Below are positions 10,673 to 59,835 of a stretch of DNA of 64,000 nucleotides, piece after piece. Every line of letters begins with the position of its first letter. The first letter of the stretch is position 1. This DNA comes from Bacteroidota bacterium (lineage in GTDB: Bacteria > Bacteroidota > Ignavibacteria > Kapaibacteriales > UBA961): positions 24,312-88,311 of the forward strand of contig JAFDZU010000005.1 in assembly GCA_018266765.1 (NCBI GenBank). Reading direction: 5' to 3'. Both the position numbers and the translations under genes were made by a program. The notes below the pieces were generated by a model that saw nothing but the letters and a program-made list of their open reading frames with translations, ran no database searches and had not been told where the DNA came from.

Positions 10673-11359
10673 CTATTTCTATTACAGAATACAAATATAC
10701 CAATTTTGCTAATAGTATTCAAACATTCTCACAACGATTAGTTTTCGCATACGTATTTTTCTAAAAGTACTCAAAGTGTTACTCTATGCCTAATTTTAAT
10801 TGCAATGGCGTTCAGAATACATTATAGGGAATAGTTGGAGCTTCAAAACAACTGCTACATTTGATTTATAAAATCAGATTAATTGTTTATAGATGAGAAT
10901 GATAATATCTGCACAAATCTAATTTTTATAATAACAGGTTTTAATAATCAGCTCCCCTTTAACAACTCAGGTTATGTATCAAAAGTTTGAAATGTATAAC
11001 CATAGAATAAAACGAATTACGAATTACAACCCCTAGTATTTATTATCAACATTCATTCTATTGATGTTAAGTAGTTCAATAGTAGTAGCTCATTCTAAAT
11101 GCCTCGTGACTATTTCTTGGTATAGAAACAATATGTAGACTAACTTTAACTCAATCTTCAACACTATTCTAATACATTACTTTAGTTAAACACTGAGTTT
11201 TGTTTACTTTGATTTATGGCTAATTATCCATTCTCTTGGATTTTAGTCGATATAGAAAGTAAAAGTGATTATACGCTGTTAATTATCCCTTGCGATGAAT
11301 ATTCTCTTTGTAATTTTGCGATTGCAGATCATGAAAATTACAACTAATAAAAAACATCT

Positions 11360-16122: not shown

Positions 16123-19100
16123 ATGAAAAAACTGTACTCTCTGCTTACTGCTTTGTTGGTAGTAAGTGCGATGTTAATTTCAACGGCAAAAGCCGGGGAA
16201 ATAGATGTCAAAAAATTGCCGTCACTACTTGGTGGTGCGACAAATGCCGGAACAGAGTTCTACTTTTCGTTTCCACCTTGTTACGAAGAAGAATCAGCCG
16301 GTTTTATGAATAGCTGCCGCGTTTTTATTGCCTCCGGAGCAAAACAACTTATTACAGTTGAAATTCCAGGTAAGGGCTATAAAGTAACCAAACTTTGCCA
16401 AGCGAATGATGTTGTTGAATTTGTATTAGGCACCGGTGCTGCTCAGCCATTTTTAAAAGCAGGTAGAGCACAAGCTCCTGTTGAGCAAGTATATCCAGGT
16501 GCTGCAGTTCACGTAACGGCTCGTGCTCCTGTGGTATGCTACGGTGTTACACGCTATAATTATACAAGTGATGGTTTCCTTGCTGTACCTATATCTGCAT
16601 TAGGAAAAGAATATATCGTTGCCGCTTATCCGCAATATACGGCTGTTGGTTCAGGTTATCAACTGACAAGCGAAACCACCATTAGTGCCGCATATGATGA
16701 CACCGAGGTATTTTATGAAATGGGTGGAACAATCGGTTCGGAAACCTCAGGTGGACTAAAGCCCGGAAAAATAACCAGCTTTACAATGAAAAACAAAGGT
16801 GATGTATTATGCTTTTCAAGTAATGGAGATATCCAAGATATTTCAGGAAGCCGTATCACAAGTAGTAAACCTGTCGCTGTTGTATCGGGTAATCAATGCG
16901 CTAATGTTCCTGCAGGCGTTTATGCTTGTGATTATATGTCAGAAATGGAACTTCCTACGTTTACATGGGGAAAAGAATATCACGTAACTCCTTTCTTTGG
17001 TCGTAAGAATAATCCTGTAATTCGTATTTATGCTAAAGAAAAAAATACAAAAGTCTATCGTGATGGTCAAGAATGGCTTGTAATACCTCGTACAACTCGC
17101 AAACTTGATGATGGTTATGTAGAGCGTCGCTCGTCTGACGGCAGTCCACGTGCAGTTGTTATTAGTGCAGATAAGCCAATTTATGTTGAAGAGTTAAATC
17201 CCGGTCAAACGGATGATAATGTTCCGAGTGATCCATTCATGCTTATCCTCTCTCCGCTCGAACAATATCAAAAAGAAATAGTATGGTGTACTCCGGGTGC
17301 TCTCACAAGTAATAATAACTTTAAGAGCCACTATGTTAACTTGGTGTATCAACTAACACCTGATGGAACAATTCCTGATGATTTGGAATTTGCTATATCG
17401 GTAGCCGGAAAATTTGAGTGGAAAAAAGTAAGTGCACGTTTCGGTGGTAGTCCTGGGTATATCTTTAGCGTACCTGTAAATGGTCAAACGTATGCTTGTA
17501 AGCAACTCACATTACCGGGTGACAATGTGTATCGTTTACGTGCGAAAGCACCATTTGCCGCATATGCTTATGGATTCTCTAATTATGATTCTTATGGTAT
17601 GCCTACAAGCGTTGCTTTAGGTAATCTTGAAGTAAAGGATACGGTTAAACCACGCCCTACATGGACATTAAAATGTGATGGTTCTGTTTCCGATGGTTCT
17701 GTTATCGATTATCCGGATGATGACCTTTCACGATCGAACTTAGCACTTATCTACATGGATTTGGATTCGAGTACCAATTATGATTTTAATTATGATTCAA
17801 AACACGAATTTATTGCCGGAACTACCCGTAAAACCGATTGGACTTTGAAAGTAATTGACCCAAGTATTGATGCTCGTGCATTTTTAGTATTTGTAGATCG
17901 CGCAGGAAATGATACGGTTATCGTTATTAATTATAAGGCCTTTAACTTAACGATGGAACCGAATGATTTTCTCAATTACGGGTTGATGAAAAAAGACTCC
18001 GTGCAAACCAAGACTGTTACAATTCGCAATACAGGACCAACACCTCTTACTGTTCATCGTCTTGAATTGAAAGATAACAAACAAGGCTTTACAATTGACC
18101 CAAGTATAAAATTGCCATTTATCATGGCACCGGGTGCAACAAGAGATATTAAGATTACATTTACTAATATTCCGGATGGTCTCTATAATGACCAAATTGG
18201 TATAGGTGATACTTGTGTTTTCTTCTACAAAACTCTTTTGAAAGCAGAAATAGCAAGTCCTGAAATATTAGTTGATGATTATGATTATGGAACTCGCTCG
18301 AAAGGTACACGTACAGTATGGCAACAGCTTTATGTTAAAAATGTCGGGCGTGTGGACTTAGTCGTTACAGGTGATGACCATTTAACATCAATTACAGGTG
18401 GAAATTTTGAACCAATTGGTTGGGCACAAACATATCCTGTTAAGATTCCTCCCGGCCAAAAAATTGGATTCCAAGTAGATTTTGTACCTCCTGCAGTTGG
18501 ATCATTCACGAATACAATTACATTCTCAAGTGATGCTAAGGTTGGTGATAGTTTATCGATTATAAAAGGCAAAGCTGTAGAACCTGGTTTGATTGCAACT
18601 CCTTATGACTGGAAGCGCAAAAGAATTAACCCTACCGCTCCTTATGATGGAACAATTGACCTTCAAAACGATGGTTCTGCGCCTGTTACAATTCAAAGTG
18701 CAAATGGAACAGACCCGAATTTTATTGTTGATTTAAATCAATTTACAAATCTGACTCTTGCAGCCGGAGCAAAGAAAACATTCCCTGTACAATTCAATCC
18801 TCTGACAACTGGTGATCATACTGTAACAATTAACTTTGTTACCACTACAGCGGGTGTTTCTGCTTCGTCAGAATTAAGAGGAACAGGTATAATCGGACAT
18901 TTGAAAACAACAGACATAGATTTCGGTACTACTGTTGTAGGTACTTTGATTTCAAATCGCCGTCAATATAAAGTTGAATGTGAAAAATGGGCATTTGAAG
19001 ATTCAGTTACAATTACTGATTTAGTTGCATCCGTCGGAGCAATTAATCCTGATTTGACAACATTTAGTGCTAATGGTTTCCGTTATGATAAACAAATAAT

Positions 19101-20313
19101 CGGTTTGCCAAAAACTTTATTACCCGGTGCAAGTTTTGTTGTTGATATATGTGAATTTTTAGCACCATTACAAGGTAATCATGCATCAGCACTTACAACT
19201 GTGAGTGATGCCGAAGCTCAAGTAACATCAAATTGGACAGGTATCGGTAGAGTAGATTTTGTTAAAGTTCTTGATTTAGTCGCTAATGGTGGTCGTGTTG
19301 ATAATATTTGTGTCGGTACAGAAGGATTTATTGACTGTACTATTAAAAACAAAGGAAACAGTGCATTTTTGATTGACAGTGTTGCGTTAGATCCAGATGC
19401 TCAATTTAGCATCGTAGTTCCTGCAACACCTAACGTACCATTCCCATTATTAACAACATCTGATGTTTCAGTCAGAATTAGCTTTAAGCCATCAGCAACG
19501 GGAACGAAAACAATTAAACTTCATATATTTAGTTCTGAATTAGGACGCGATACTACAGTTGAAATTACTGGTGTTGGTGTTGATTATTCAAGTGTTGCTA
19601 CTACAAAAACGCTTACTAATATTGCAATCGGAAGTAAAGTAACAGTTCCGATTACATTAAAAGATCCAATTGTAGCATCTGCTAATGTTAATAAACTAAC
19701 AGTATCGGTAACCTATGACGGTCGTTTAATTGCTCCTTCATTAGCAGAATTTACTGCCGGTGCCGCAGCGGCGGGGTTTAAAGTAACAAATGCAAAAGAA
19801 GTAACAAAAGGAACGAACGGTTTACTTACGTTCGACTTTGAGAGCACAGGTTCAATCCTAACTGCTCCGGGCGATATTATTAATATGGTGTTCTTTGTTT
19901 ATTTACCAAATGGTATTGACTTTACAGCAATTACGCCAACGATTACAGTGGTTAACAGTCAATGTGCGAAAATTACGGCTGAGCCGGGTAAAATACAAGT
20001 AAGTCCTACATGTGCATTTAACTTGCGTAAAGTTGACAGCAAAAATGTAATGTATAGTATGACTGCAATTAGCCCGAATCCAATTGGTGCTAATGGTGCT
20101 GAAGTAGAGTTTTCAGTTGGCTTGAAAGCAATGACTGAACTCTCTCTCTATAACAGCACAGGTACAAAAGTAGCAGTTATAGCAGTCGGTTCTTTAGAGC
20201 CGGGTAGTTATAGCGTAAAAGTTCCCGTAGAAGGTTTAAGCTCAGGAACATATATGTTACGTCTAAATTCCGGTCAGTATTCTGAAGAACAGCAAGTAGT
20301 TATTGTCAAGTAA
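16123..20313 (+). CDS. T9SS-secreted large surface protein (1396 aa)
   Basis: Cleavable signal peptide (MKKLYSLLTALLVVSAMLISTAKA). N-terminal ~500 aa resembles the IgGFc-binding-protein N-terminal domain (GTEFYFSFPP…, repeated beta-helix-like strands). Middle region has many Ig-like (DUF1573/ASH-type) repeats. C-terminal ~80 aa is a typical T9SS sorting domain (…LSLYNSTGTKVAVI…SGTYMLRLNSGQYSEEQQVVIVK). Strong SD AAGGAG precedes the start. Confidence 0.75.
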   Translation: MKKLYSLLTALLVVSAMLISTAKAGEIDVKKLPSLLGGATNAGTEFYFSFPPCYEEESAGFMNSCRVFIASGAKQLITVEIPGKGYKVTKLCQANDVVEFVLGTGAAQPFLKAGRAQAPVEQVYPGAAVHVTARAPVVCYGVTRYNYTSDGFLAVPISALGKEYIVAAYPQYTAVGSGYQLTSETTISAAYDDTEVFYEMGGTIGSETSGGLKPGKITSFTMKNKGDVLCFSSNGDIQDISGSRITSSKPVAVVSGNQCANVPAGVYACDYMSEMELPTFTWGKEYHVTPFFGRKNNPVIRIYAKEKNTKVYRDGQEWLVIPRTTRKLDDGYVERRSSDGSPRAVVISADKPIYVEELNPGQTDDNVPSDPFMLILSPLEQYQKEIVWCTPGALTSNNNFKSHYVNLVYQLTPDGTIPDDLEFAISVAGKFEWKKVSARFGGSPGYIFSVPVNGQTYACKQLTLPGDNVYRLRAKAPFAAYAYGFSNYDSYGMPTSVALGNLEVKDTVKPRPTWTLKCDGSVSDGSVIDYPDDDLSRSNLALIYMDLDSSTNYDFNYDSKHEFIAGTTRKTDWTLKVIDPSIDARAFLVFVDRAGNDTVIVINYKAFNLTMEPNDFLNYGLMKKDSVQTKTVTIRNTGPTPLTVHRLELKDNKQGFTIDPSIKLPFIMAPGATRDIKITFTNIPDGLYNDQIGIGDTCVFFYKTLLKAEIASPEILVDDYDYGTRSKGTRTVWQQLYVKNVGRVDLVVTGDDHLTSITGGNFEPIGWAQTYPVKIPPGQKIGFQVDFVPPAVGSFTNTITFSSDAKVGDSLSIIKGKAVEPGLIATPYDWKRKRINPTAPYDGTIDLQNDGSAPVTIQSANGTDPNFIVDLNQFTNLTLAAGAKKTFPVQFNPLTTGDHTVTINFVTTTAGVSASSELRGTGIIGHLKTTDIDFGTTVVGTLISNRRQYKVECEKWAFEDSVTITDLVASVGAINPDLTTFSANGFRYDKQIIGLPKTLLPGASFVVDICEFLAPLQGNHASALTTVSDAEAQVTSNWTGIGRVDFVKVLDLVANGGRVDNICVGTEGFIDCTIKNKGNSAFLIDSVALDPDAQFSIVVPATPNVPFPLLTTSDVSVRISFKPSATGTKTIKLHIFSSELGRDTTVEITGVGVDYSSVATTKTLTNIAIGSKVTVPITLKDPIVASANVNKLTVSVTYDGRLIAPSLAEFTAGAAAAGFKVTNAKEVTKGTNGLLTFDFESTGSILTAPGDIINMVFFVYLPNGIDFTAITPTITVVNSQCAKITAEPGKIQVSPTCAFNLRKVDSKNVMYSMTAISPNPIGANGAEVEFSVGLKAMTELSLYNSTGTKVAVIAVGSLEPGSYSVKVPVEGLSSGTYMLRLNSGQYSEEQQVVIVK

Positions 20314-27915: not shown

Positions 27916-30309
27916 TTAGTTATTCAAAATAATAAACGTGAAAATTTCACCTGTTCTATTTCTTCTGATAAAGTACATTCCTGCAGTTAAATCCTCTGTT
28001 TTAACCGTTAATTTACTTTGTCCATATTCTCCAAAAACTGATAGCAATTTCTGTCCTACTATAGAATACACATCGAATTGTTCTTTCGAATTATCTCCCA
28101 AATATCGAATTGAAACAGTTGAAGTTGCAGGATTTGGGTATATTGAAAACTGCATACTGTTCTCTTTGTTTTTCTCTAAAACATCAGCAGATGACTGAAA
28201 TTCTCTTGCTCCTATATCCGGCAATAAACCGGAATATGAATCATTAAATCCGAGAATAATTTCGCCCTTATCTATTAATAAACTGGTCGGAGATAATTCA
28301 TAATTACCGGATGAAATACTACTAAACACTGGATTGATTAATACAGCTTTTGAAATTGAACACCTATTGTCACCCGTGATAGTTCTCAGTTCTTCATCGA
28401 AAGGTAAAACATCTGAAAAAGCAATGCATTTAGGAATTCCATTCATTGGTTGTATTATTGCTAAGATGTTATTTTTATTATAATAACAATCACTTTGGGA
28501 ATTAAAATTATAGAGTGAATCTCCTTGAATTCCATCTAGAAAAAATGAAGATTTTCCTTCTGAATAGTAAATATTATTACGGCTAAAAATAGACTTCCAC
28601 GTAGAATTCCACAAATACATATCAAACCCCAATGTATCGGCTGTGTGGAAAGTATTATGGACAAAAATCATATCAGGAGGATTAATCGTCCGCGCAGAAG
28701 CATTAAGTTTTATTCCAGTGCCCCAAATTTTGGTAGAAGAAATATTATCACAATCCATAAAAAAAATGTCATTATGATTTTTCCGCTCAATGATATGATG
28801 AATTATATTTCTGAAAATATAATTCGGACCAAAACTCGCATTTATAAATGATAGTCCAACCGAGCAATAACCAACTGTGTTATTCCAAATACGAGAGTTT
28901 ATACTACCGCCATCGGCATTAATTCCATTGTAAGAATTGCTGATTTTGTTGTTGTAAATATCCGTTTCTTCGGAAGCTAGATCGGTAGTCAAACTTTTTC
29001 CGACTAATCCGCCTATATATCCATCTACACTATTATTACGAATAATATTTACTTGAGATTGACTGCTAAAATTAATGGCGGCATACTCCATATATCGTCC
29101 ATACGTACCTTGTTCGAGGATGGTAACATCACGCGTTTGTTTGAATGCGCCGTGCGAATACTTTCCGACACCATCTTGAAATGTACAATTTTGAACTATA
29201 GAATAATTACAGCTATCTGAAAAATTAATAGGCCAATTACAGTATTCAAAATGACAATTATCCAGTACAACATGATTTGTATTTTTGAACGAAAGAGTCA
29301 AAGCAGGATAATCGCCATCAACAAGTGAAAAAATATTTTTAGTAATAATCGGTTTTGCAAAATATTTAAAAGTAATTTCACTGAAATAAAGATAGTTATT
29401 CTTGTTATTCCCTTGAACTGTAATACATTGTGACAGTTTAGAGAAAGTGAGGTGTTCGTTATTTGGATTGCGATGGTCAAGAGTCTTGAAGTAAAACGTA
29501 CTGTCTTTTCGATAAAATCCCGAAAGGTCATACCCTAAATCAGACAAGCTCGGATACGGAAAAGCCGCCGGAATGAGCAAACCATAGGGATACAGCCGAA
29601 GATTTTTATTGAGTAAACAAAGAGAAGTATAAGCAATATCTGAACGAACAGTTGTTGAATACAGCGCTGAATCTTCTGCGGTTGCTTTCCAAATATAACG
29701 AGTGGTATCTCCACCATCAAATACGGGAGTTTCGCCCGGAGCTGCCATAAAAACAATGGGAGTTTCTTCGGTGCAATTACCATTTAATTTGATAGCTAGG
29801 TTACCAATAGCATAATTCCCACCTTTGAGTATTACCGTTGTTCCACAGGAAATTTCCGATGTCAGCAGAACCTTTAAACTACCGGGCAGTGCGGAAGAAT
29901 ATGCTGTTCCTGAACCAAATGGACTTACATATTTGATTATTCCGATAGGTATAATAACGGGAGGTGCAAGTGTTTTTACAGAATCGTTAATTTCATTGAT
30001 TTGTGGTGTTTGTGAACTATCAATTAGCGTTAGTTTTATGTTGTACTGTGCATTTGAGTCTAACAAAAACAGACTGCCTCTCCATTGTTTGGTTTGGTTG
30101 TCGTATGAAGGTGAAAAACCATTTTTCCAGAGAAAATCACCTTTTTTTTTGTAGATAATACTTAGGTTGGATTTAGAGCTGACATTCGAATTAGAAGACG
30201 ATAATGAATAGCCGATACTATTGAAGGTAGCTGTTGTTGTAAATCTAATTTGAGATTGTGCATCGGAAATACAGAATAGTATGAGAATAATTACAACACT
30301 TATTTTCAT
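27916..30309 (-). CDS. T9SS-secreted right-handed beta-helix (pectin-lyase-fold) protein, 797 aa
   Basis: Signal peptide, then repeated N-x-(I/V)-x-G/NN beta-helix rungs (…IIRNNSVDGYIGG…, …IWNNTVGYCSVGLSF…, …IFRNIIHH…). Terminal T9SS sorting domain (…FSIYPNPATSTVSIRY…AGMYFIRRNRTGEIFTFIILNN). Confidence 0.7.
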   Translation of the reverse strand: MKISVVIILILFCISDAQSQIRFTTTATFNSIGYSLSSSNSNVSSKSNLSIIYKKKGDFLWKNGFSPSYDNQTKQWRGSLFLLDSNAQYNIKLTLIDSSQTPQINEINDSVKTLAPPVIIPIGIIKYVSPFGSGTAYSSALPGSLKVLLTSEISCGTTVILKGGNYAIGNLAIKLNGNCTEETPIVFMAAPGETPVFDGGDTTRYIWKATAEDSALYSTTVRSDIAYTSLCLLNKNLRLYPYGLLIPAAFPYPSLSDLGYDLSGFYRKDSTFYFKTLDHRNPNNEHLTFSKLSQCITVQGNNKNNYLYFSEITFKYFAKPIITKNIFSLVDGDYPALTLSFKNTNHVVLDNCHFEYCNWPINFSDSCNYSIVQNCTFQDGVGKYSHGAFKQTRDVTILEQGTYGRYMEYAAINFSSQSQVNIIRNNSVDGYIGGLVGKSLTTDLASEETDIYNNKISNSYNGINADGGSINSRIWNNTVGYCSVGLSFINASFGPNYIFRNIIHHIIERKNHNDIFFMDCDNISSTKIWGTGIKLNASARTINPPDMIFVHNTFHTADTLGFDMYLWNSTWKSIFSRNNIYYSEGKSSFFLDGIQGDSLYNFNSQSDCYYNKNNILAIIQPMNGIPKCIAFSDVLPFDEELRTITGDNRCSISKAVLINPVFSSISSGNYELSPTSLLIDKGEIILGFNDSYSGLLPDIGAREFQSSADVLEKNKENSMQFSIYPNPATSTVSIRYLGDNSKEQFDVYSIVGQKLLSVFGEYGQSKLTVKTEDLTAGMYFIRRNRTGEIFTFIILNN

Positions 30310-34666: not shown

Positions 34667-37600
34667 TTATTTGCTAAGAGTCATCTTACCATTTAATACG
34701 TGATTACCTGCTGATAAACGATAGATATATGTACCTGATGCTACAGGATTACCTTGAGCATCTGTACCATTCCAAGTAACTGAATGTGAACCTGAAGTTT
34801 GCTCAGCGTTTATCAAAGTAGTAACTACATTACCGAATACATCAATGATATCTAATTTAACCATAGATTTATCTTGCAATGCAAACTCTATGTTTGTTGA
34901 AGTCGAGAATGGATTTGGATTGCTTTGTCCCAAAGCAACTTCTGTATTTCCATCGAAAGTAAATTCGAGGATATCAGAAATCTGCTTACAAGACTCAGTT
35001 CCGTTCATATCAACTTGCATCAAACGATATTGATACGTATTGCCAAGACGAACACTATTGTCAGTATAGCTATAATCATTTTCGGCTGAGGTTGTTCCGT
35101 GTCCACCAATAAAGATAATTGATGACCACTGACCTTCAGTTCCTACACCACCGATTGCTCGACGTTCTACATGGAAACCGCTATTATTTTCTTCAGAAGC
35201 GGTATGCCAGAAGAGATCTACTCCACTTTGACGTTTTTGACCATCAAAATAGGTTAGTTCTACAGGAGTAAGACAGTTTTCGTCGAACAGAGGTGTTTCA
35301 GAGTATGTTTTATCTCCTAAGTATGGACGAAGCATCGGAAGCCATGTACCACGTGACCGTGTTTGATAACCTGCGATTGATGCACCACCTGCATGGTTAA
35401 GATGACCAAATGCAGGATTTCCAATACTTGGCATGAATTGATTCCATGTTCCTGAGAATCTTGTATTCTCATAAGCGAACAAATTATTATTAATCAATTG
35501 TTTGAACCCATTGTCTTGACGGAAACGTTTGTCAAGATTAAGATGAGTACCGCTTAATCCGTAAGTACCTGGAGGTAAATCACTATAATTTGTTATAATC
35601 TGACCTACACGTGCTTTTGAAGCACCTAAACAGTATCCATCAAATCCTAATTGAGCACATGAAATCCAATAATCACCCGGCTCAAGAACAATAGGTTTAT
35701 CAAGTAAATATGTAGTATATTCATCATAGAACAAATCTTTGCGAACATCATCATATCCTCTTTGACGTATCAACGCTTTTTCACCCGGTTTCAAGAAGAT
35801 AGGATTAGCACCCGGCTGACCACCGGCATCTTTATAGATGGAGAACGAAATTGGGTCAGGGCTTTGATTCAAACCGCCAAACCATGTCTGGAATCCTTTA
35901 ATAGAATCTTGTCTGATAAGCGTAAATTTAACTGCTATCTGTCCGGAACCGTTACCTGCTTCAGGACCGAAAGCATATCTTCCGTCAACAATATCTCCAC
36001 CTGCGTGTGGCCATAGACCTTCAGCATATCCGAACATATTTAGACCTTTTCCTACAAACTGACGGCCAAGTGCTGCAGTTGCAAAATCAGGTACATCATT
36101 TCTTGCGGCTGTAGGATCATATGCAAACACAGGACCATAGTTCAAAGTAAAAATACTATAATTTAAGTCATTAGTATTATCTAAATCGCCACCTTGTACT
36201 GTTGCTCTACCTTCAATAACGTAACGGCCAGGAGGTGATCTACGCGCATTCCAAGCAGGAACACTCGAATTAATTTCTTGTCCGGGATATATAGCAGGAA
36301 GAGGCGTAGAATTACAATAGACTGCATTAACTTGTTTAGTAATTTCATCTGAATTAAGCCATTGTTCTTGGTAAATTCTTACTTTAACAGTTACTGTTGC
36401 AGAAACTTTATTAGAATTATTTGAAATTTTAAATCTAATAGGCATTGTCGTTGCCTGACTTGCCGGTGTAACTGTATATGGCCAATTGACTTCACAAAGT
36501 TCCATTTCGACATCGGCACTTTCTTGTGAATAGATTAAGTGTACATTATCAATAAAGAAATCATCATCATCATCCTTAGGTTGAAGAGGTGTAGATTGAT
36601 TATTAACAGCTGAAACACGGAATCTGAATCTAAAGTTTTTAGCACCTAAACTTGGAGAATAAATTAATGAATCTGGCAAGAAGAAGAAGTATTTACTATA
36701 TTCCCAATCTTTACCATCATCATATTTATTTGCACGTAAACCTTGAGCTGCAGTCAAAGCTGAATCTTTACTTATATAATCAACAGTAGCCGGTTTGTTT
36801 TCCAAGAAACCACGACGTAAACCACCTGCTCCAAAGAGCGTCAAGACAGGATTACCGGTAATTGTCTGACCATCGCGACGTTTGTGAATATTCCATGTAA
36901 TATCTGAAGTTGATTGTTTTGCAATATTTTCAATTTCATCCGCACTTGGACGAGCAAATTCAAGATAGAATTCATCCGGTGCAGGTCCGTATGTTGTAGT
37001 TCCACCTGGAGGGTCATTATAAAGTACTCTTGGTTCTGGACCAACAAGTAGGGCATCAGACCATCCACGTCCTAAGTCACCATTCGCTTTACCGGTTCTT
37101 TGGTACGAGAAGGAAAGAACTGCATTTTTTGTTGGGCGATTTGGAAGATCTCTGACATCAATAGGGAATGAACGTAATTCATCACCTTTTGCAGGTGTTG
37201 TTGGTTCATCACCACTTAATGTCTTCCGATTTAACCTAATAACCGGAGAATTAACTCTTTGATTTGCTTTATTTGCAGCTGGATACGATCCACGTGGAGG
37301 AACCGGATTATAGGTATTTTCTTCACCGTCAGATACTTCACCATCTATATTAACCCATTTTAATACTGATGGCATAGCAGTTCCATTTATTATATGGAAT
37401 TGTGTAACATCATCATTAAATCCGTCACTATTCAAAAATGACAAACGACGCATAACAAAAATGTCTTGTTTTACTGTATCATCAAATGGCCATTGGTCAC
37501 CTAAACTTCTAAATAAAGTATCTACGGGCTCAGCTATAACTAAAGCTCTTAGACGACCGATATGGAAATCTATCAACTCATTTGGCTGAAATGCGGGGAA

Positions 37601-39421
37601 ATTAACTCTTACCATTCCATAAGGAGGAACTCCATTTAATGGACAAGAGCCATTATTATAAGGGAAATTTCCACCTGTAGAAGGAACCGTAAATGAAGAG
37701 CCACTAACATAATCAACAGTGGCAGTTGTACCAGGGCAAAAACCTTGTAAACAACTCATGCCAATTGGCACTGATTCTGAATACGCGGTTTGTCCAGTAG
37801 CTTGGTTAACAATACGGAAACGAGTTCTAAAATTAACATCCTGTTTTGAATAATTAACACCAGCTGGGCGTAGTGGATTTGCTAAACCAGGACCTTGTAT
37901 ATCATTCGTTAAGTTTTGGAAAACTGCTACAGGGCGAATTGCACCTAATTGAGCATGTCCGGCAAGCAATTCTATATTTGTTCCCGTTATGACTCTGGTA
38001 TAAGCATCTAAACTAGCAGTTGGATTTAACTCTCTACCAAGATAAGTAGGCTGACCAACAACTCTTAACACGTTCTTCCATTGTTTAAATCGTATAGCCA
38101 ATCCTGTCTGAGGCGTAGAAGCACCGGAACCAACTGGTCCGGCAACATTCACAGAGTTTCCTGGGAAATCTGCATTTGCCAAATATTGAGTAGATTGAGC
38201 ATAAGAGGTTAAATATTCCGGCTGACTGAGATTTGAAGAACAATTAGGGTTTTTATATGAATAATGACGTGCATTACCTTTTACACCGATCGTCGAATTC
38301 ATTCGTAGTAATTCACTTGCACCTATTGGAATATTACTTTTTACAATACTTCCTGCCAAACTTCTATAATAAATATAAACAGAACTGTCAGACTCATCAA
38401 GAGTTACCTGGAAGTCAATAAGTATTCTTCTGTCATCTTTGGGGAATGTTTCCGTTCCTGCACGAGTTGTCTTCGCCCCCATAAGGGATACGTTTTTATA
38501 AAAAATAACCAATCTACGTGTTCCATCAGGATTATCCGCACGTTTGAACCATACTTGACCTTTATCAGCATCATCAAGATTTTGATGTTGTGATAATTGT
38601 AAGTCAGTCCATAAAGCAGCAATAATCGGCGAAAATCTCATATCGTTTGGAACACCTGTTAAACTCGTGTTTGCAGGGTTTCTAATACCACCTTTAGGTG
38701 TTGCAGTATTTCCAGTTGCTACATACTGATAACCATAATCATCTGCTGTATTGTCACTCAATCCATCACCTATTTTTGGACGGGCTACATAAGAACTGGC
38801 ATCCACATTTTCTTCACGGTAGAAGTTATATGAATCAGACGAACCTGCAGGAATTGTTCTATTGCCTGAAGCATCATAACTGTAGCGGCGATTCGAAAGA
38901 GCAATCAGGCCATTCGTAGAGACATAAAAACTATCATATCTTACACCATTAAAGAAGAAAGGAAAGCCAATTTTAATTGGACCTGCGATTGCATCGTCAG
39001 TCGAATCAGTTAAAGCATTCGGGTTTCTAAAAAACATTTTGCCGTTATCGGCTAAATCTTGCGCATCGACAATTTGATTTGGTCCGGACACAATCCTTTT
39101 CCATTTAACAACTTCCGCTGGATCTGTCTCGGAATCTTTATCTAAATACGCTTTGAATAAGTCCGGACGCCATGCGTCACCGGCCTCATCATCACTATCC
39201 ACAATATAATAACCAGTCGAAACCGCTGGCTGAGTTTTTGCCGGACGGTTATTATTGACAGTATTAATTGCCGGGAATGCAGTGAATGGCTGAGGGAAAG
39301 AACCTTTAGCAAGATCTGCTTTACGCAGTACCTCGGCTCCACCATCTTTAGCATTTTCTGCTGCGAATGCTGTGCTTACGACACAAATGGCAATCGCAAA
39401 AAGTAGCAGTGTACTCTTCAT
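34667..39421 (-). CDS. T9SS-secreted very large protein (1584 aa) with FN3-like module before the C-terminal sorting domain; remaining ~1400 aa unassigned
   Basis: Signal peptide MKSTLLLFAIAICVVSTAFA. Near the C-terminus an FN3-like segment (…ELTYFDGQKRQSGVDLFWHTASEENNSGFHVERR…YQYRLMQVDMNGTE…) precedes the T9SS sorting domain (…NPNPFSTSTNIEFAL…SGTYIYRLSAGNHVLNGKMTLSK). Confidence 0.7.
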   Translation of the reverse strand: MKSTLLLFAIAICVVSTAFAAENAKDGGAEVLRKADLAKGSFPQPFTAFPAINTVNNNRPAKTQPAVSTGYYIVDSDDEAGDAWRPDLFKAYLDKDSETDPAEVVKWKRIVSGPNQIVDAQDLADNGKMFFRNPNALTDSTDDAIAGPIKIGFPFFFNGVRYDSFYVSTNGLIALSNRRYSYDASGNRTIPAGSSDSYNFYREENVDASSYVARPKIGDGLSDNTADDYGYQYVATGNTATPKGGIRNPANTSLTGVPNDMRFSPIIAALWTDLQLSQHQNLDDADKGQVWFKRADNPDGTRRLVIFYKNVSLMGAKTTRAGTETFPKDDRRILIDFQVTLDESDSSVYIYYRSLAGSIVKSNIPIGASELLRMNSTIGVKGNARHYSYKNPNCSSNLSQPEYLTSYAQSTQYLANADFPGNSVNVAGPVGSGASTPQTGLAIRFKQWKNVLRVVGQPTYLGRELNPTASLDAYTRVITGTNIELLAGHAQLGAIRPVAVFQNLTNDIQGPGLANPLRPAGVNYSKQDVNFRTRFRIVNQATGQTAYSESVPIGMSCLQGFCPGTTATVDYVSGSSFTVPSTGGNFPYNNGSCPLNGVPPYGMVRVNFPAFQPNELIDFHIGRLRALVIAEPVDTLFRSLGDQWPFDDTVKQDIFVMRRLSFLNSDGFNDDVTQFHIINGTAMPSVLKWVNIDGEVSDGEENTYNPVPPRGSYPAANKANQRVNSPVIRLNRKTLSGDEPTTPAKGDELRSFPIDVRDLPNRPTKNAVLSFSYQRTGKANGDLGRGWSDALLVGPEPRVLYNDPPGGTTTYGPAPDEFYLEFARPSADEIENIAKQSTSDITWNIHKRRDGQTITGNPVLTLFGAGGLRRGFLENKPATVDYISKDSALTAAQGLRANKYDDGKDWEYSKYFFFLPDSLIYSPSLGAKNFRFRFRVSAVNNQSTPLQPKDDDDDFFIDNVHLIYSQESADVEMELCEVNWPYTVTPASQATTMPIRFKISNNSNKVSATVTVKVRIYQEQWLNSDEITKQVNAVYCNSTPLPAIYPGQEINSSVPAWNARRSPPGRYVIEGRATVQGGDLDNTNDLNYSIFTLNYGPVFAYDPTAARNDVPDFATAALGRQFVGKGLNMFGYAEGLWPHAGGDIVDGRYAFGPEAGNGSGQIAVKFTLIRQDSIKGFQTWFGGLNQSPDPISFSIYKDAGGQPGANPIFLKPGEKALIRQRGYDDVRKDLFYDEYTTYLLDKPIVLEPGDYWISCAQLGFDGYCLGASKARVGQIITNYSDLPPGTYGLSGTHLNLDKRFRQDNGFKQLINNNLFAYENTRFSGTWNQFMPSIGNPAFGHLNHAGGASIAGYQTRSRGTWLPMLRPYLGDKTYSETPLFDENCLTPVELTYFDGQKRQSGVDLFWHTASEENNSGFHVERRAIGGVGTEGQWSSIIFIGGHGTTSAENDYSYTDNSVRLGNTYQYRLMQVDMNGTESCKQISDILEFTFDGNTEVALGQSNPNPFSTSTNIEFALQDKSMVKLDIIDVFGNVVTTLINAEQTSGSHSVTWNGTDAQGNPVASGTYIYRLSAGNHVLNGKMTLSK

Positions 39422-47079: not shown

Positions 47080-47759
47080 ATATCAATCTATATAACTCTT
47101 AATGTTTATTAGTTCATATTTCAATCTACTATTGACAACACTATTCTAACTAAAATAAAAACGATCACTTCTAATAAAAAATATCTGTTTTATTATATTT
47201 AAAGTATTTCCTATAAAGTAAATATCAATTAGTCTTGTTACCTTGAACTTAATTCAAAATCCCCGGTGACTATTCAGTCAAGTTTTGTGTTATGCTTGCG
47301 GAGATGTTATAATGAATTCAGCATGACTAAGGTATTATTTGTTTTGTTTCTACTTTTTTTTCATTAATAACACCATATAATGCCTCTACCGTAATTGGAT
47401 GACCAAACCCATCCATTCTATCTTAATATAAAATATACTATGTTAATGTGCCGCAAAATAACATAATCTCAAAATTTGCGTAGCAAACAAAAAAAATAAT
47501 TTAGCAACATAAATTAGAATTGCGTTTACTTGATAAAAGATTAGTGTATCTTTTTGTTTTTTTAAAATTTAGGTTGGCAATAAGTTAATTATTGTTTAAC
47601 TTTATTTTAAGTAAATTTCTAATATATAAATTAATGATAAATTTACAAACAAAATTTATACTAAATGTTAAAAAAACAGAGGAAATACAGTTATTTGATT
47701 AATATTATTTTAACTATTATTAAAAAGTTTCAAACCATACCGAGAAAGCTTAGAAAAAT

Positions 47760-55733: not shown

Positions 55734-56645
55734 TTATGTGTGTCCGGGCGGGTGGAACGCACTCTCTAAATGACTCGTAACATCTACAGGAGTAGGAAGT
55801 AATAACTTCTCAATTGTTTGTTCAGCGGCAGTAGCAATCGTATGGCAAACTTCTATCGGCGTACCGTCTTTAAATTGTAAATGGAAATCTGCATACACCT
55901 GTTGTCCTGATTCGCGCATCCGCAATCGGTGAAAAGAAATGTCATTGCGCAAGCAAAAATCTTCTAATCCAATGCGAACTTTCTGCTCAAACTCAGAATT
56001 TGTTTTGTCCATTAATCCATCTGCAGAACTGCGGAGTAATTTCATTCCCTCGAAAATAATATTCCCGCCAAACAGCAAAGCCGCAACAGGGTCAACCCAC
56101 GTTAGACCCGTCGCTTGGGCAATTAACAACCCAAGTATTGCTCCAAAACTCGTCCATGCGTCAGTGAGAATGTGCTTGCCATTGGCAGTGACAATTAATG
56201 ATCGTTCACGCTTTCCGGTTCTGACCAAAAACCAACCTAACAGTGCATTTACAGCTCCGGCAAACGCAGTAAGCGAAGTACCGAGCGTTATTTGTTCGAG
56301 CGTTATGCCGACTATGATTTTTTCGACAGCAGTGTAGATAATCACAAACGCGGCAAGAATAATTAATCCGCCTTCTAATCCTGCAGAGAAGTAGCTTATT
56401 TTATCGTGACCAAAGTGGTGGTCTTTGTCAGGCGGGCGATACGTAACTCTTAAACTATACGACGCAAAACCAACTGCAAAAATATGGACAATGGTTTCCA
56501 TTGCATCCGAAAAAATGGCAACTGAATGTGTTAGTGAATACGCTGACCACTTTATCGCAAGCATTAATATTCCAACAACAAGCGATATATTCATTGCTTG
56601 TGTTTCTTTGCGAGAGAGCGTATTTTGCGATTGATACTGAGGCAT
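55734..56645 (-). CDS. Cation diffusion facilitator transporter (start uncertain, 56645 or 56762)
   Basis: Six TM helices with CDF signature …SVAIFSDAMETIVH… and …HILTDAWTSFGAI…. C-terminal cytoplasmic domain. Confidence 0.75.
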   Translation of the reverse strand: MPQYQSQNTLSRKETQAMNISLVVGILMLAIKWSAYSLTHSVAIFSDAMETIVHIFAVGFASYSLRVTYRPPDKDHHFGHDKISYFSAGLEGGLIILAAFVIIYTAVEKIIVGITLEQITLGTSLTAFAGAVNALLGWFLVRTGKRERSLIVTANGKHILTDAWTSFGAILGLLIAQATGLTWVDPVAALLFGGNIIFEGMKLLRSSADGLMDKTNSEFEQKVRIGLEDFCLRNDISFHRLRMRESGQQVYADFHLQFKDGTPIEVCHTIATAAEQTIEKLLLPTPVDVTSHLESAFHPPGHT

Positions 56646-57455
56646 TATTACTCCGTATGCTGAGAAAATTGATGTACGTTTACGGTGAATTTTCGCTAGC
56701 TGACGACAAGCAATCTGTTTCATTGCGAAACATTTTGGGCTGTGTATCAAAAAGAATAACAATCAACGAACAGTGAAGTAAGTAGACCGCTTATTAGTTT
56801 ATAACAACAATAACAATCAGCGTTCATTGTCCTCACTGTTCATCTACACAAGTCGTTAAAAATAGAAGTAGATTTTAGTGGCGAATAGGATTTTTAATGC
56901 AAGATTTGTAAGGAACAGTTTCTTTTGAAGTACCATAATCGAAAAAGCAGACACAACACAACACGCCGTTTGATATTCAGCATGCTCGCCAACAACAGAG
57001 AGATTCGAGACATTTCTCGAGTTTTGCTGAGACAATTAGAATGCCTTTGTGACGGTCTTGCCAAAAGAAAAGCATAGAACTAAGCAAACAATATACAAAG
57101 TACATCGAGGTAGTCAACACAAACATCCTGTCTAAAAACAGACGATTAGTACGCAAAACCACAGCTTTTTCCAAGAAAATACTGTATCATAGTTGCAGCG
57201 TTAGACCATATATTGTATCACAGAAACAAATATCATACTTTTTGATACACAACCTTTTCTTATGCGCCGGTCGGATGATTGGAAAATTCTTGGTTGTCAT
57301 GTCATATTCTCGTAGTTTCGAGAAATGTACTGTAGCTGAGAGCAAAGAGAAGAAACAGCAGAAACTTTGGAAGTTCAGGAAATTTCTACGGAACAGAATC
57401 ATAACACGTACAGTATAATCATTCGATATTATTCTATTTCCTCTACCGTGATACT

Positions 57456-58929
57456 ATGAAATCCTTTATTCTTTATCTGGCTCTATTATTTGCCGCTCCG
57501 CTTTTTGCTCAAAAGCCCGTTCAAAACACAATCCCCCAACTCAAAGAATGGTGGCGGGCTGATGATATGGAGTATGGTAAAAACGGTATGACTTGGCTTG
57601 ATAACTTCTATAATGGCAAGGGTGCGCTTGTAGTCTCAACTCCAGACGGTGTAAAAAGTTGGCAAATGCGCTTTCCGGGTGATACGGTAAATGTATTTAC
57701 TTGGTCAGGTGGCAGTGCCGCTATAAGAACGGGTGATTTTAATGGAGATGGAATTACTGACTATCTTGATGGAAAAGGTAATATTTATGAAGGAATTCAA
57801 AATGGTGAATTACCCAAGCCACAATCTTCGGGTAAGGGCTTCTACCCTGACTTGGTAATGGATATAAACGCTGACGGTTATGATGATATGTTTTATCCTG
57901 AAGGTTATGTATTGGGCGGTGCTAATCTTCAAGAGTTACAAAGCAAAGTGATTAAGTTTCCTGAAATTGACAGTAATAATGTAGTTTTATTATCATATAT
58001 AGTATCCACAAAAGAGATACGTGTACTCTGTCGCCACTATTATTGGACAAATTTAACAAAATATCCTTTTGGAAAAGTGTATAAAGAAGGTTTGCGTTTA
58101 ATAGGTTTACATTGGGAAAACACAGGATTTACATCAAAAGTGCTTGATGAATTTACAGTCCCCACTCCCGATAGCACAGGAATATTATATACAGGCGCAC
58201 TACTTTCACAACCTTCCGGCAAGAATTATTTTATATGTGCAACGATGATAAAAGGAAAGAATCAAAATACTGATGTAACAGTTTATGATCTCAATAACGA
58301 TAAACTTGAAAAATTATACAGTAAAAGAATTGATGGTATTTCAAGTATAAATCAATTGAGTAAAAGTATAGATGGAGATGATATATCATCATTTTTTATC
58401 AATCAGTATAATCTTGGAGTCCCTACTCTTCATTTTTATAAAGGTAATATTACGGATTCTCTTCATGAAATAGCACAATTTACAACTGTTCAGATAGCAT
58501 ATTTGACTTCTATATCAGATATAAAATGGAGATGGTAGAGCGGACTTAGCATTAAGCAACCACTATTTTCCTTCGTTAGAAAGATTTAGGTTTAGTGTTG
58601 TTTCGCTAAAAGATACAACTACATCGGTAATAGAAAGCCAAGCAGAAAATAATGGTATTTGGATTAAAGCAATTTCCCCAATGTCTGTTTCAAAAGATAA
58701 AACTCTTCAACTAAAAGTAGCAGTTCCCCATGCAAGCATATACACCCTTTCTCTCTATGATATACTTGGCATGAAGCTACCGAGCAAGTCAGCCGAACGC
58801 TTTCAATTATAAGGCGAGCAGGTTTTGTTTGTGAATATTGGCGATTATGCGGTCAGTAGCGGCGTTTATACTCTGCGCTTAGAGGGTAGTCAGGGTTTGA
58901 TGGCTCAATGTTCGGTTGTTATTGAATAA
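57456..58929 (+). pseudogene. Disrupted T9SS cargo gene encoding an FG-GAP/VCBS-repeat secreted protein. Frameshift in the A4 run near 58523-58527; in-frame TAA at 58810-58812 inside the C-terminal sorting domain.
   Basis: The supplied ORF track ends at 58538 (…SISDIKWRW*). Shifting +1 in the A-run restores …DINGDGRADLAL…, a perfect FG-GAP motif matching earlier repeats (GDFNGDGITDYLDG, MDINADGYDDMF). It continues into …FSVVSLKDTTTS…IYTLSLYDILGMKL…QL*GEQVLFVNIGDYAVSSGVYTLRLEGSQGLMAQCSVVIE*, a T9SS CTD broken by TAA. Confidence 0.55.
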
Positions 58930-58993: not shown

Positions 58994-59029
58994 AAAACGT
59001 TCGAGAGATTACTCTATCGAACGTTTTAT
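58994..59029 (+). terminator. Rho-independent terminator after the disrupted T9SS gene
   Basis: aaaacgttcga-gagattactcta-tcgaacgtttt perfect 11-bp stem followed by T-run. Confidence 0.6.
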
Positions 59030-59253: not shown

Positions 59254-59835
59254 TTGATTAAGAGCAGTCAGATGGAGAAACTCTACACCTCATATTCCGA
59301 CGAAGAACTTATCGCCCTACTATCAAAAGCGGGACGCGAGACTGAGCGTGCTTTTACTGTATTATACAATCGCTATTCCTCGCGTATTCACGCCTATTGC
59401 TATAGAATAATTGAAGATAGCGCGTATGCCGAAGATATGTTTCAAGAAACATTCATACGATTTTATCAAACAGCACAGTCGGGACGAGCAATTACAAACG
59501 TTCCGGGTTTTATGATTACAATTGCGCGGAATCTGTGCCTCAATTACAAACGAGATAAAAAAGATGCGTTAGTTCTGAGTGATATTGATTTTTTTACGGA
59601 CACGAGTCAGAACTACGAACAGAAAGAACTTTTAGATTTAATTGCTCGGTCGCTTGAATTGCTAAGTTTTGAATACCGAGAAGTTTTTATTTTGCGTGAA
59701 TACGACGGACTGGCGTATGAAGAAATAGCAGAAATTACAGGCACAACAGTTACGAATGCTAAAACGAGAGCATTTAGAGCAAAGCAAAAAGTAAAAGAAA
59801 TATTATCGCCCTATCTCAAAGATATCAGCGAATGA
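59254..59835 (+). CDS. RNA polymerase sigma-70 factor, ECF subfamily
   Basis: Region 2 (…YNRYSSRIHAYCYRII…AEDMFQETFIRFY…) and region 4 HTH (…YDGLAYEEIAEITGTTVTNAKTRAFRAKQKV…). About 190 aa. Confidence 0.85.
   Translation: MIKSSQMEKLYTSYSDEELIALLSKAGRETERAFTVLYNRYSSRIHAYCYRIIEDSAYAEDMFQETFIRFYQTAQSGRAITNVPGFMITIARNLCLNYKRDKKDALVLSDIDFFTDTSQNYEQKELLDLIARSLELLSFEYREVFILREYDGLAYEEIAEITGTTVTNAKTRAFRAKQKVKEILSPYLKDISE

Follow-up and report, generated by a model that had tools for sequence, protein, structure and literature searches.

Introduction

Type-A cargo proteins of the type IX secretion system (T9SS) of the Fibrobacteres-Chlorobi-Bacteroidetes share a common layout: a Sec signal peptide, a functional domain and a C-terminal β-sandwich of ∼ 85 amino acids, described by the Por_Secre_tail models (TIGR04183/PF18962). 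The secretion machinery comprises PorK/L/M/N, Sov/SprA and PorU/V. FG-GAP/VCBS propellers (PF01839, PF13517) have the fold of the integrin α headpiece. Segmental gene conversion is found in multigene surface-protein families such as tpr, msp2, vls and pilS. A literature search on Kapabacteria and type IX secretion found nothing pertinent.

Here we describe a gene that touches on all three systems. It lies in a 64,000-nucleotide stretch of DNA (hereafter the window) and had been read, from the sequence, as an FG-GAP and T9SS C-terminal-domain cargo gene broken by a 1-nt insertion and an in-frame TAA. Our analysis supports this reading and takes it further: at least six related copies make up a family in this genome, and the gene is a mosaic of three of them. 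The locus probably represents a genuine gene copy, inactivated not long ago, from a paralogous family specific to Kapabacteria; its lesions are seen in one assembly, and we put the probability of this reading at about 0.6.

Results

Two lesions interrupt the reading frame

The gene opens with ATG at 57456 on the plus strand and runs in frame 0 for 360 codons (segment 1, 57456–58538), covering the signal peptide and the greater part of the β-propeller with its FG-GAP repeats. It closes out of frame with ...LTSISDIKWRW and a TAG at 58536–58538, and all coordinates agree with the original prediction. The frame is lost at codon 357, in an A4 run (58523–58526, plus strand) with a 1-nt insertion that turns the ancestral ATA AAT into ATA AAA T; SDINGDGRADLAL thereby becomes SDIKWRW followed by the stop. 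From 58525 the +1 frame reads NGDGRADLALSNHYFPSLERFRFSV... (in a longer excerpt, NGDGRADLALSNHYFPSLERFRFSVVSLKD...). This second segment (58525–58809, plus strand) carries the final blade of the FG-GAP propeller (NGDGRADLAL...), followed by a linker and by the sorting domain up to about its midpoint, where an in-frame TAA at 58810–58812 (codon 452, plus strand) ends it. The text around this stop is ...SAERFQL, stop, GEQVLFVNIGDYAVSSGVYTLRLEG... (also given as GEQVLFVNIGDYAVSSGVYTLRLEGSQGLMAQCSVVIE). Beyond it, the +1 frame ends with ...CSVVIE and a final TAA at 58927–58929. With the A4 run shortened by one A, the gene reads through 1473 nt (490 codons) and meets just one internal stop; we refer to this as the repaired reading.

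The closest relative with readable DNA, P0003 (on contig L017), has GAC ATA AAT AAT GAT GGT at the shift site, with A3, where the window has GAT ATA AAA TGG AGA TGG, with A4. The lesion is thus an A3-to-A4 insertion. The TAA had been placed in the sorting domain, and it is indeed there; homologues carry Ser or Thr at this position, with Ser in P0037 (FQLSGEQ), Thr in P0002 and P0009 (FQLTGEQ), and Ser again in the form YQLSGEQ among the aligned homologues. One substitution would suffice to turn TCA into TAA. Relative to ∼ 50 intact homologues, the frame is disrupted by the 1-nt insertion and the TAA. In GenBank the 360-residue stump is MBS1536425.1, hypothetical protein JST20_01595, from a 'Bacteroidetes bacterium' metagenome-assembled genome (MAG) on a contig of 91,940 nt.

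Domain organization and fold

The Sec-type signal peptide, MKSFILYLALLFAAPLFAQ (57456–57512, plus strand), was recognized by inspection, with cleavage before KP. It is kept across the family, and in the paralogue P0002 this region is modelled as a helix (residues 4–20). The repaired protein matches Pfam FG-GAP (PF01839) in three stretches with 36 bits (cutoff 22.1) and FG-GAP_3 (PF13517) with 35.8 bits (cutoff 26.9). The proposal that an FG-GAP motif continues in the +1 frame is borne out, as the best FG-GAP stretch (residues 352–371) spans the repair site and homologues align through it. Upstream of the shift, the three copies that had been noted are DFNGDGITD, DINADGYDD and IDGDDISS; calcium-loop-like motifs of the type DxNxDGxxD are present in the repaired protein.

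The T9SS type-A C-terminal sorting domain (58672–58929, plus strand) comprises residues 406–490 and the final TAA. Its assignment stands for the family, since TIGR04183 is found at E ≤ 0.01 in 17 of the 19 members aligned, with 1.1e-9 as the best value; for the window sequence alone the match is sub-threshold at 18.1 bits (cutoff 23, E = 0.002, residues 419–483, spanning the TAA). A precomputed PF18962 match is present on nine homologues.

The fold was taken from P0002, an intact paralogue modelled with AlphaFold on an alignment of 43 sequences (pLDDT 83), and not from the window protein itself, which aligns with P0002 column for column. The model consists of the signal helix, a β-propeller that extends to about residue 387, a disordered linker (390–402) and a C-terminal β-sandwich (406–491). 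Its first fold match in the PDB is the integrin α6β1 headpiece (E = 1.3e-7), followed by further integrin α headpieces, DDB1 and semaphorin propellers; with TM-scores of 0.3–0.45 and 9–12% identity, these matches represent a generic propeller likeness. On this model, the frameshift would take away the final propeller strands, the linker and the sorting domain. An N-terminal motif, IPQLKEWWRAD...GMTWLDNFY, is strongly conserved, specific to the Kapabacteria family and without a named family. From N- to C-terminus, the family protein thus has a Sec signal peptide, an integrin-α-like FG-GAP β-propeller of ∼ 370 residues, a linker that is short and disordered, and the T9SS type-A sorting domain of ∼ 85 residues.

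Homologues and a second broken copy

A search of a 5.8-billion-protein collection gave 54 relatives, one of them the 360-residue stump itself and most of them from Candidatus Kapabacteria or Kapaibacterium MAGs. About 50 others are 480–520 residues long and cover 95–100% of the repaired reading, so that the intact homologues of ∼ 490 residues that had been called for do exist and align end to end. Across the shift site they read S-D-I/V-N/T-G-D-G-K-A/P-D-L-A-L-S, and the alignment passes both lesions. The ∼ 25 other copies for which DNA is available are intact single open reading frames (ORFs) that need no frameshift. A metagenome scan with the repaired protein returned no syntenic orthologue, only two distant loci, and the C-terminal 161 residues, used as a query for near-identical fragments over the lesions, gave a single match at 56%.

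Tandem arrays of two to four family copies are common in other genomes. In those of Kapaibacterium STL-BAC57, an ORF of 160–220 residues follows each family copy (L002:6416-6910, L003:180-668, L003:2252-2773, L004:6416-7087 and L006:1499-6532). This ORF corresponds to the N-terminus of a 1678-residue protein, which is complete in L006 only, so the unit that was duplicated apparently takes in part of the downstream gene, in truncated form. No remnant of these small companion ORFs was found within the window.

Another family member is also cut short. P0008 (357 residues; L017:2119-3353, ERZ12298642 scaffold_102924_c1), from an unrelated sample and another organism, ends by an in-frame TAA in the context ...TTCQAPIIA, stop, FPVEKDSQIAIVYSANKGWCFQ...; P0005 has Ser at this position, and in-frame homology continues to the end of the contig. 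The P0008 stop aligns about five codons upstream of the window shift site, and such nearness would occur by chance in ∼ 4% of cases. As a TAA cuts P0008 too, family copies are lost from time to time, and we read the two broken copies together as occasional loss in a birth-and-death family.

The two broken copies also bear on whether a full-length product could still be made, by slipped-strand phase variation at the A4 run, by +1 frameshifting at AUA-AAA-U and/or by readthrough of the TAA. Judged from the sequence, tRNA-Lys slipping by +1 would yield SDIKGDGRADLAL, which resembles the family motif, and the sequence downstream of the P0008 stop looks intact. We nevertheless consider recoding or switching scarcely credible. 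The A4 run is one of 1133 A/T runs of four or more in the window; a tract of this length is far below those known to slip at useful rates, phase-variable tracts typically having seven or more units. The slippage-based phase switch suggested in the original prediction lacks support on the same ground, and also because A8–T9 tracts are unbroken within intact ORFs and the second lesion would keep the gene off. None of the other copies with DNA needs a frameshift, the homologous proteins are read straight through, and the site has no evident stimulatory element and no Rfam match. One mRNA would, moreover, need two different recoding events. Reassignment of TAA was rejected: it is an ordinary stop here, ending 35 of the 42 ORFs in the window.

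Genomic context

The gene is a solo locus outside any cassette array, and no internal repeat of it was found elsewhere in the window. Its upstream neighbour is a CDF cation-efflux gene on the opposite strand (55734–56762). In the 693-nt spacer between the two (56763–57455) there is neither a convincing ORF nor homology to other loci of the family. The GenBank number MBS1536424 lies between those of the CDF protein and P0001, which points to a small hypothetical CDS annotated in this spacer. Downstream are an ECF sigma factor gene (59254–59835), then genes for two proteins without a Pfam match and a histidine kinase gene.

A hairpin of 11 + 3 base pairs (58994–59027; −15.4 kcal/mol, z = −3.3) begins 65 nt past the full-length stop and has no T-tract except a TTTT in its 3′ arm. 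A strict terminator scan and searches for Rfam families and tRNAs returned nothing in or around the locus. The position of the hairpin after the full-length stop fits an original transcription unit of 1.47 kb, of which it is likely to have been the terminator.

The window contains other T9SS cargo genes. One (27916–30309, minus strand) encodes a 797-residue protein with a Por_Secre_tail domain (PF18962, 39 bits); another (16123–20313, plus strand; PF18962, 26.8 bits) encodes 1396 residues with an IgGFc_binding domain, Ig-like domains and a Por_Secre_tail. No T9SS machinery genes were found among the window ORFs scanned. A large secreted-protein gene (34667–39421, minus strand) encodes 1584 residues with an FlgD_ig-like domain at the end. 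Two further regions of ∼ 680 nt each (10673–11359 and 47080–47759) have no stop-free segment of 45 or more codons on either strand and no Rfam or tRNA match; the latter is rich in A/T runs of 7–8 and lies upstream of a Peptidase_S24 (LexA-like) gene.

A patchwork of sister copies

The same MAG contributes the hits P0001, P0002, P0005, P0009, P0033 and P0037, so that at least six family copies lie in this genome; three carry JST20 locus tags, and the others were assigned from interleaved accessions (MBS1536303–MBS1537757). The copies that matter most here are P0002 (MBS1537212), P0005 (MBS1536303), P0009 (MBS1536788) and P0037 (MBS1537130). We compared these paralogues at the protein level by sliding-window identity, nearest neighbours per segment and breakpoint tests on informative sites. 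Block A (residues 76–278; 57681–58289, plus strand) is 91% identical to P0005 (JST20_00980) and 60% identical to P0002. Block B (residues 285–389; 58308–58623, plus strand) is 92% identical to P0002 and 28% identical to P0005. Block C (residues 406–490; 58672–58929, plus strand), which is the sorting domain, is 87% identical to P0037 (JST20_05225) and 85% identical to P0009, with 54% to P0002. The switch between residues 278 and 285 has a Fisher p of 5e-31 and that between residues 389 and 412 a p of 1e-13 to 1e-20. The mosaic is thus strongly supported: at the protein level the gene is a recombinant of at least three sister copies of the same genome, and segments must pass between members of the family through gene conversion or recombination. 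The sorting domain is near-identical in three otherwise divergent paralogues.

Such exchange could give a broken copy a role as a silent donor, a mosaic kept as a reservoir of blocks for the conversion of expressed paralogues, as in pilS, vls or msp2. Besides the three-block mosaic and the shared sorting domain, this would account for lesions without decay and for a patchy, conversion-like polymorphism of 4 nt between samples at the locus (see below). It is, however, very improbable. The gene still has a start codon and a signal peptide of its own, together with its upstream region and the hairpin downstream, all of which, to our knowledge, known silent cassettes lack, and it stands alone rather than in a cassette array. 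The ∼ 25 other copies are intact, expressible genes.

Independent assemblies and the possibility of sequence error

Logan contigs of the same organism from other runs (L020–L025), anchored on the flanking genes (a downstream 406-residue protein and the CDF transporter), have flanks identical to the window. On the left they stop exactly at 57245, 211 nt upstream of the ATG, in three runs, and earlier in two others; on the right they restart inside the C-terminal domain, at 58842 or 58845. The span 57246–58841, with both lesions, falls outside every independent Logan contig. The gene and the 210 nt upstream of it behave as a repeat or variant region. In L021 (SRR18313647), the window-specific 3′ end of the sorting domain (LEGSQG) is joined to the sigma-factor flank. 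L020 (SRR24111707; L020:40-47) differs from the window at 4 of 8 nt (58881, 58884, 58887 and 58888), changing LEGSQG to LEGGQG, the version present in P0009 and P0037; on sequence this looks like a short gene-conversion patch.

The lesions, and perhaps the mosaic as well, could therefore be an assembly or consensus artefact, in which a short-read assembler threaded or polished the contig through paralogues or strains while the real gene is intact. The breaks of other samples' unitig assemblies precisely at this span are consistent with such an error, as is the coexistence of variants implied by the patch in SRR24111707. Several of the MAG paralogues, moreover, end at contig edges (P0005 and P0037, both 'partial'), and near-identical blocks among paralogues, above all the sorting domain, are places where short-read assemblies break or may mis-join. 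Still, we judge an artefact the less likely reading. A simple chimera of the assembled paralogues was rejected, as the blocks are 85–92% and not 100% identical to them, and the block junctions carry neither lesion; the frameshift lies inside block B. All known paralogues have Ser or Thr codons at the TAA position, with C at the second position, so that a mixture of their reads would not give TAA.

A general error rate is no better as an explanation. Long ORFs, 42 in all, account for 84% of the window, and those of 4.2 and 4.8 kb among them contain A8–T9 runs. Most gaps between them hold small ordinary genes (e.g. L21, L27 and ACP), and neighbouring genes have full-length domain matches. The window has 44 homopolymer runs (A/T ≥ 7, G/C ≥ 6), all of A/T, with runs of A8–T9 within intact ORF spans. 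A platform-wide homopolymer error was rejected on the grounds that runs much longer than A4 are unbroken. That two random errors should fall within 290 nt of each other is unlikely in 64 kb that are clean elsewhere.

The gene is broken by two lesions, as had been claimed, but to call it decaying is too strong. It deviates from the family-conserved columns at 3 of 91 positions, which is typical of intact members, and it matches P0002 at 93% identity immediately ahead of the shift and at 91% immediately past it. In conserved columns and in identity to P0002 there is no degenerative change beyond the two lesions. Either the lesions are recent, then, or gene conversion homogenises the copy.

Discussion

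The reading that we prefer, a genuine copy that was recently inactivated, can be put as a short series of events. A first hit would have lengthened a short A run by one at codon 357, in the last propeller blade, with ATAAAT becoming ATAAAAT; a second, independent hit would have been the nonsense change to TAA at codon 452, in the sorting domain. What remains would be a 360-residue protein exported to the periplasm. Since this product would have neither the strands that close the propeller nor the T9SS signal, it could not be secreted or anchored, and we suggest that it is most likely misfolded and degraded. Block exchange among the sister copies, or the youth of the lesions, may have kept the disabled part undecayed.

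Apart from the gap in independent coverage over both lesions, three points speak against this reading. PGAP set no pseudogene flag and named the 360-residue ORF a hypothetical protein; the absence of relaxed constraint would also fit sequence errors; and a repeat family is where MAG assemblers and polishers are least reliable. A bolder view would take the whole family as recombination-driven variable surface proteins, with the undecayed broken copies (the window gene and P0008) serving as reservoirs or as loss-of-function alleles under phage or predator pressure. We regard it as a long shot.

As an inactivated copy, the locus alone carries little weight: it is a dead member of an uncharacterised family of secreted propellers, and the organism is Kapabacteria-like and uncultured. 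As a pseudogene it is ordinary, and the patchwork of three sister copies is its sole unusual trait. In annotation, JST20_01595 should be entered as a pseudogene, with both the frameshift and the internal stop noted. More broadly, the mosaic hints at block exchange in the evolution of T9SS cargo families in a little-studied lineage.

In its architecture the family follows the T9SS type-A cargo proteins, the sorting domain being placed at the extreme C-terminus after a linker, as in the P0002 model. The window copy departs from them in that its sorting domain scores below the cutoff and is interrupted by the TAA, so that it cannot direct secretion; and unlike in type-A cargo, the domain recurs almost verbatim in three otherwise divergent paralogues. 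Likeness to the FG-GAP/VCBS propellers consists in the scores of the repaired protein above both Pfam cutoffs and in the propeller of the P0002 model, although the resemblance to PDB structures is generic and the N-terminal motif is the family's own. With tpr, msp2, vls and pilS the family shares multiple, often tandem copies, mosaic blocks between paralogues and occasional disabled copies. It differs from them in that no dedicated expression site, promoterless cassettes or switching are in evidence, and in that the window gene has a complete 5′ end.
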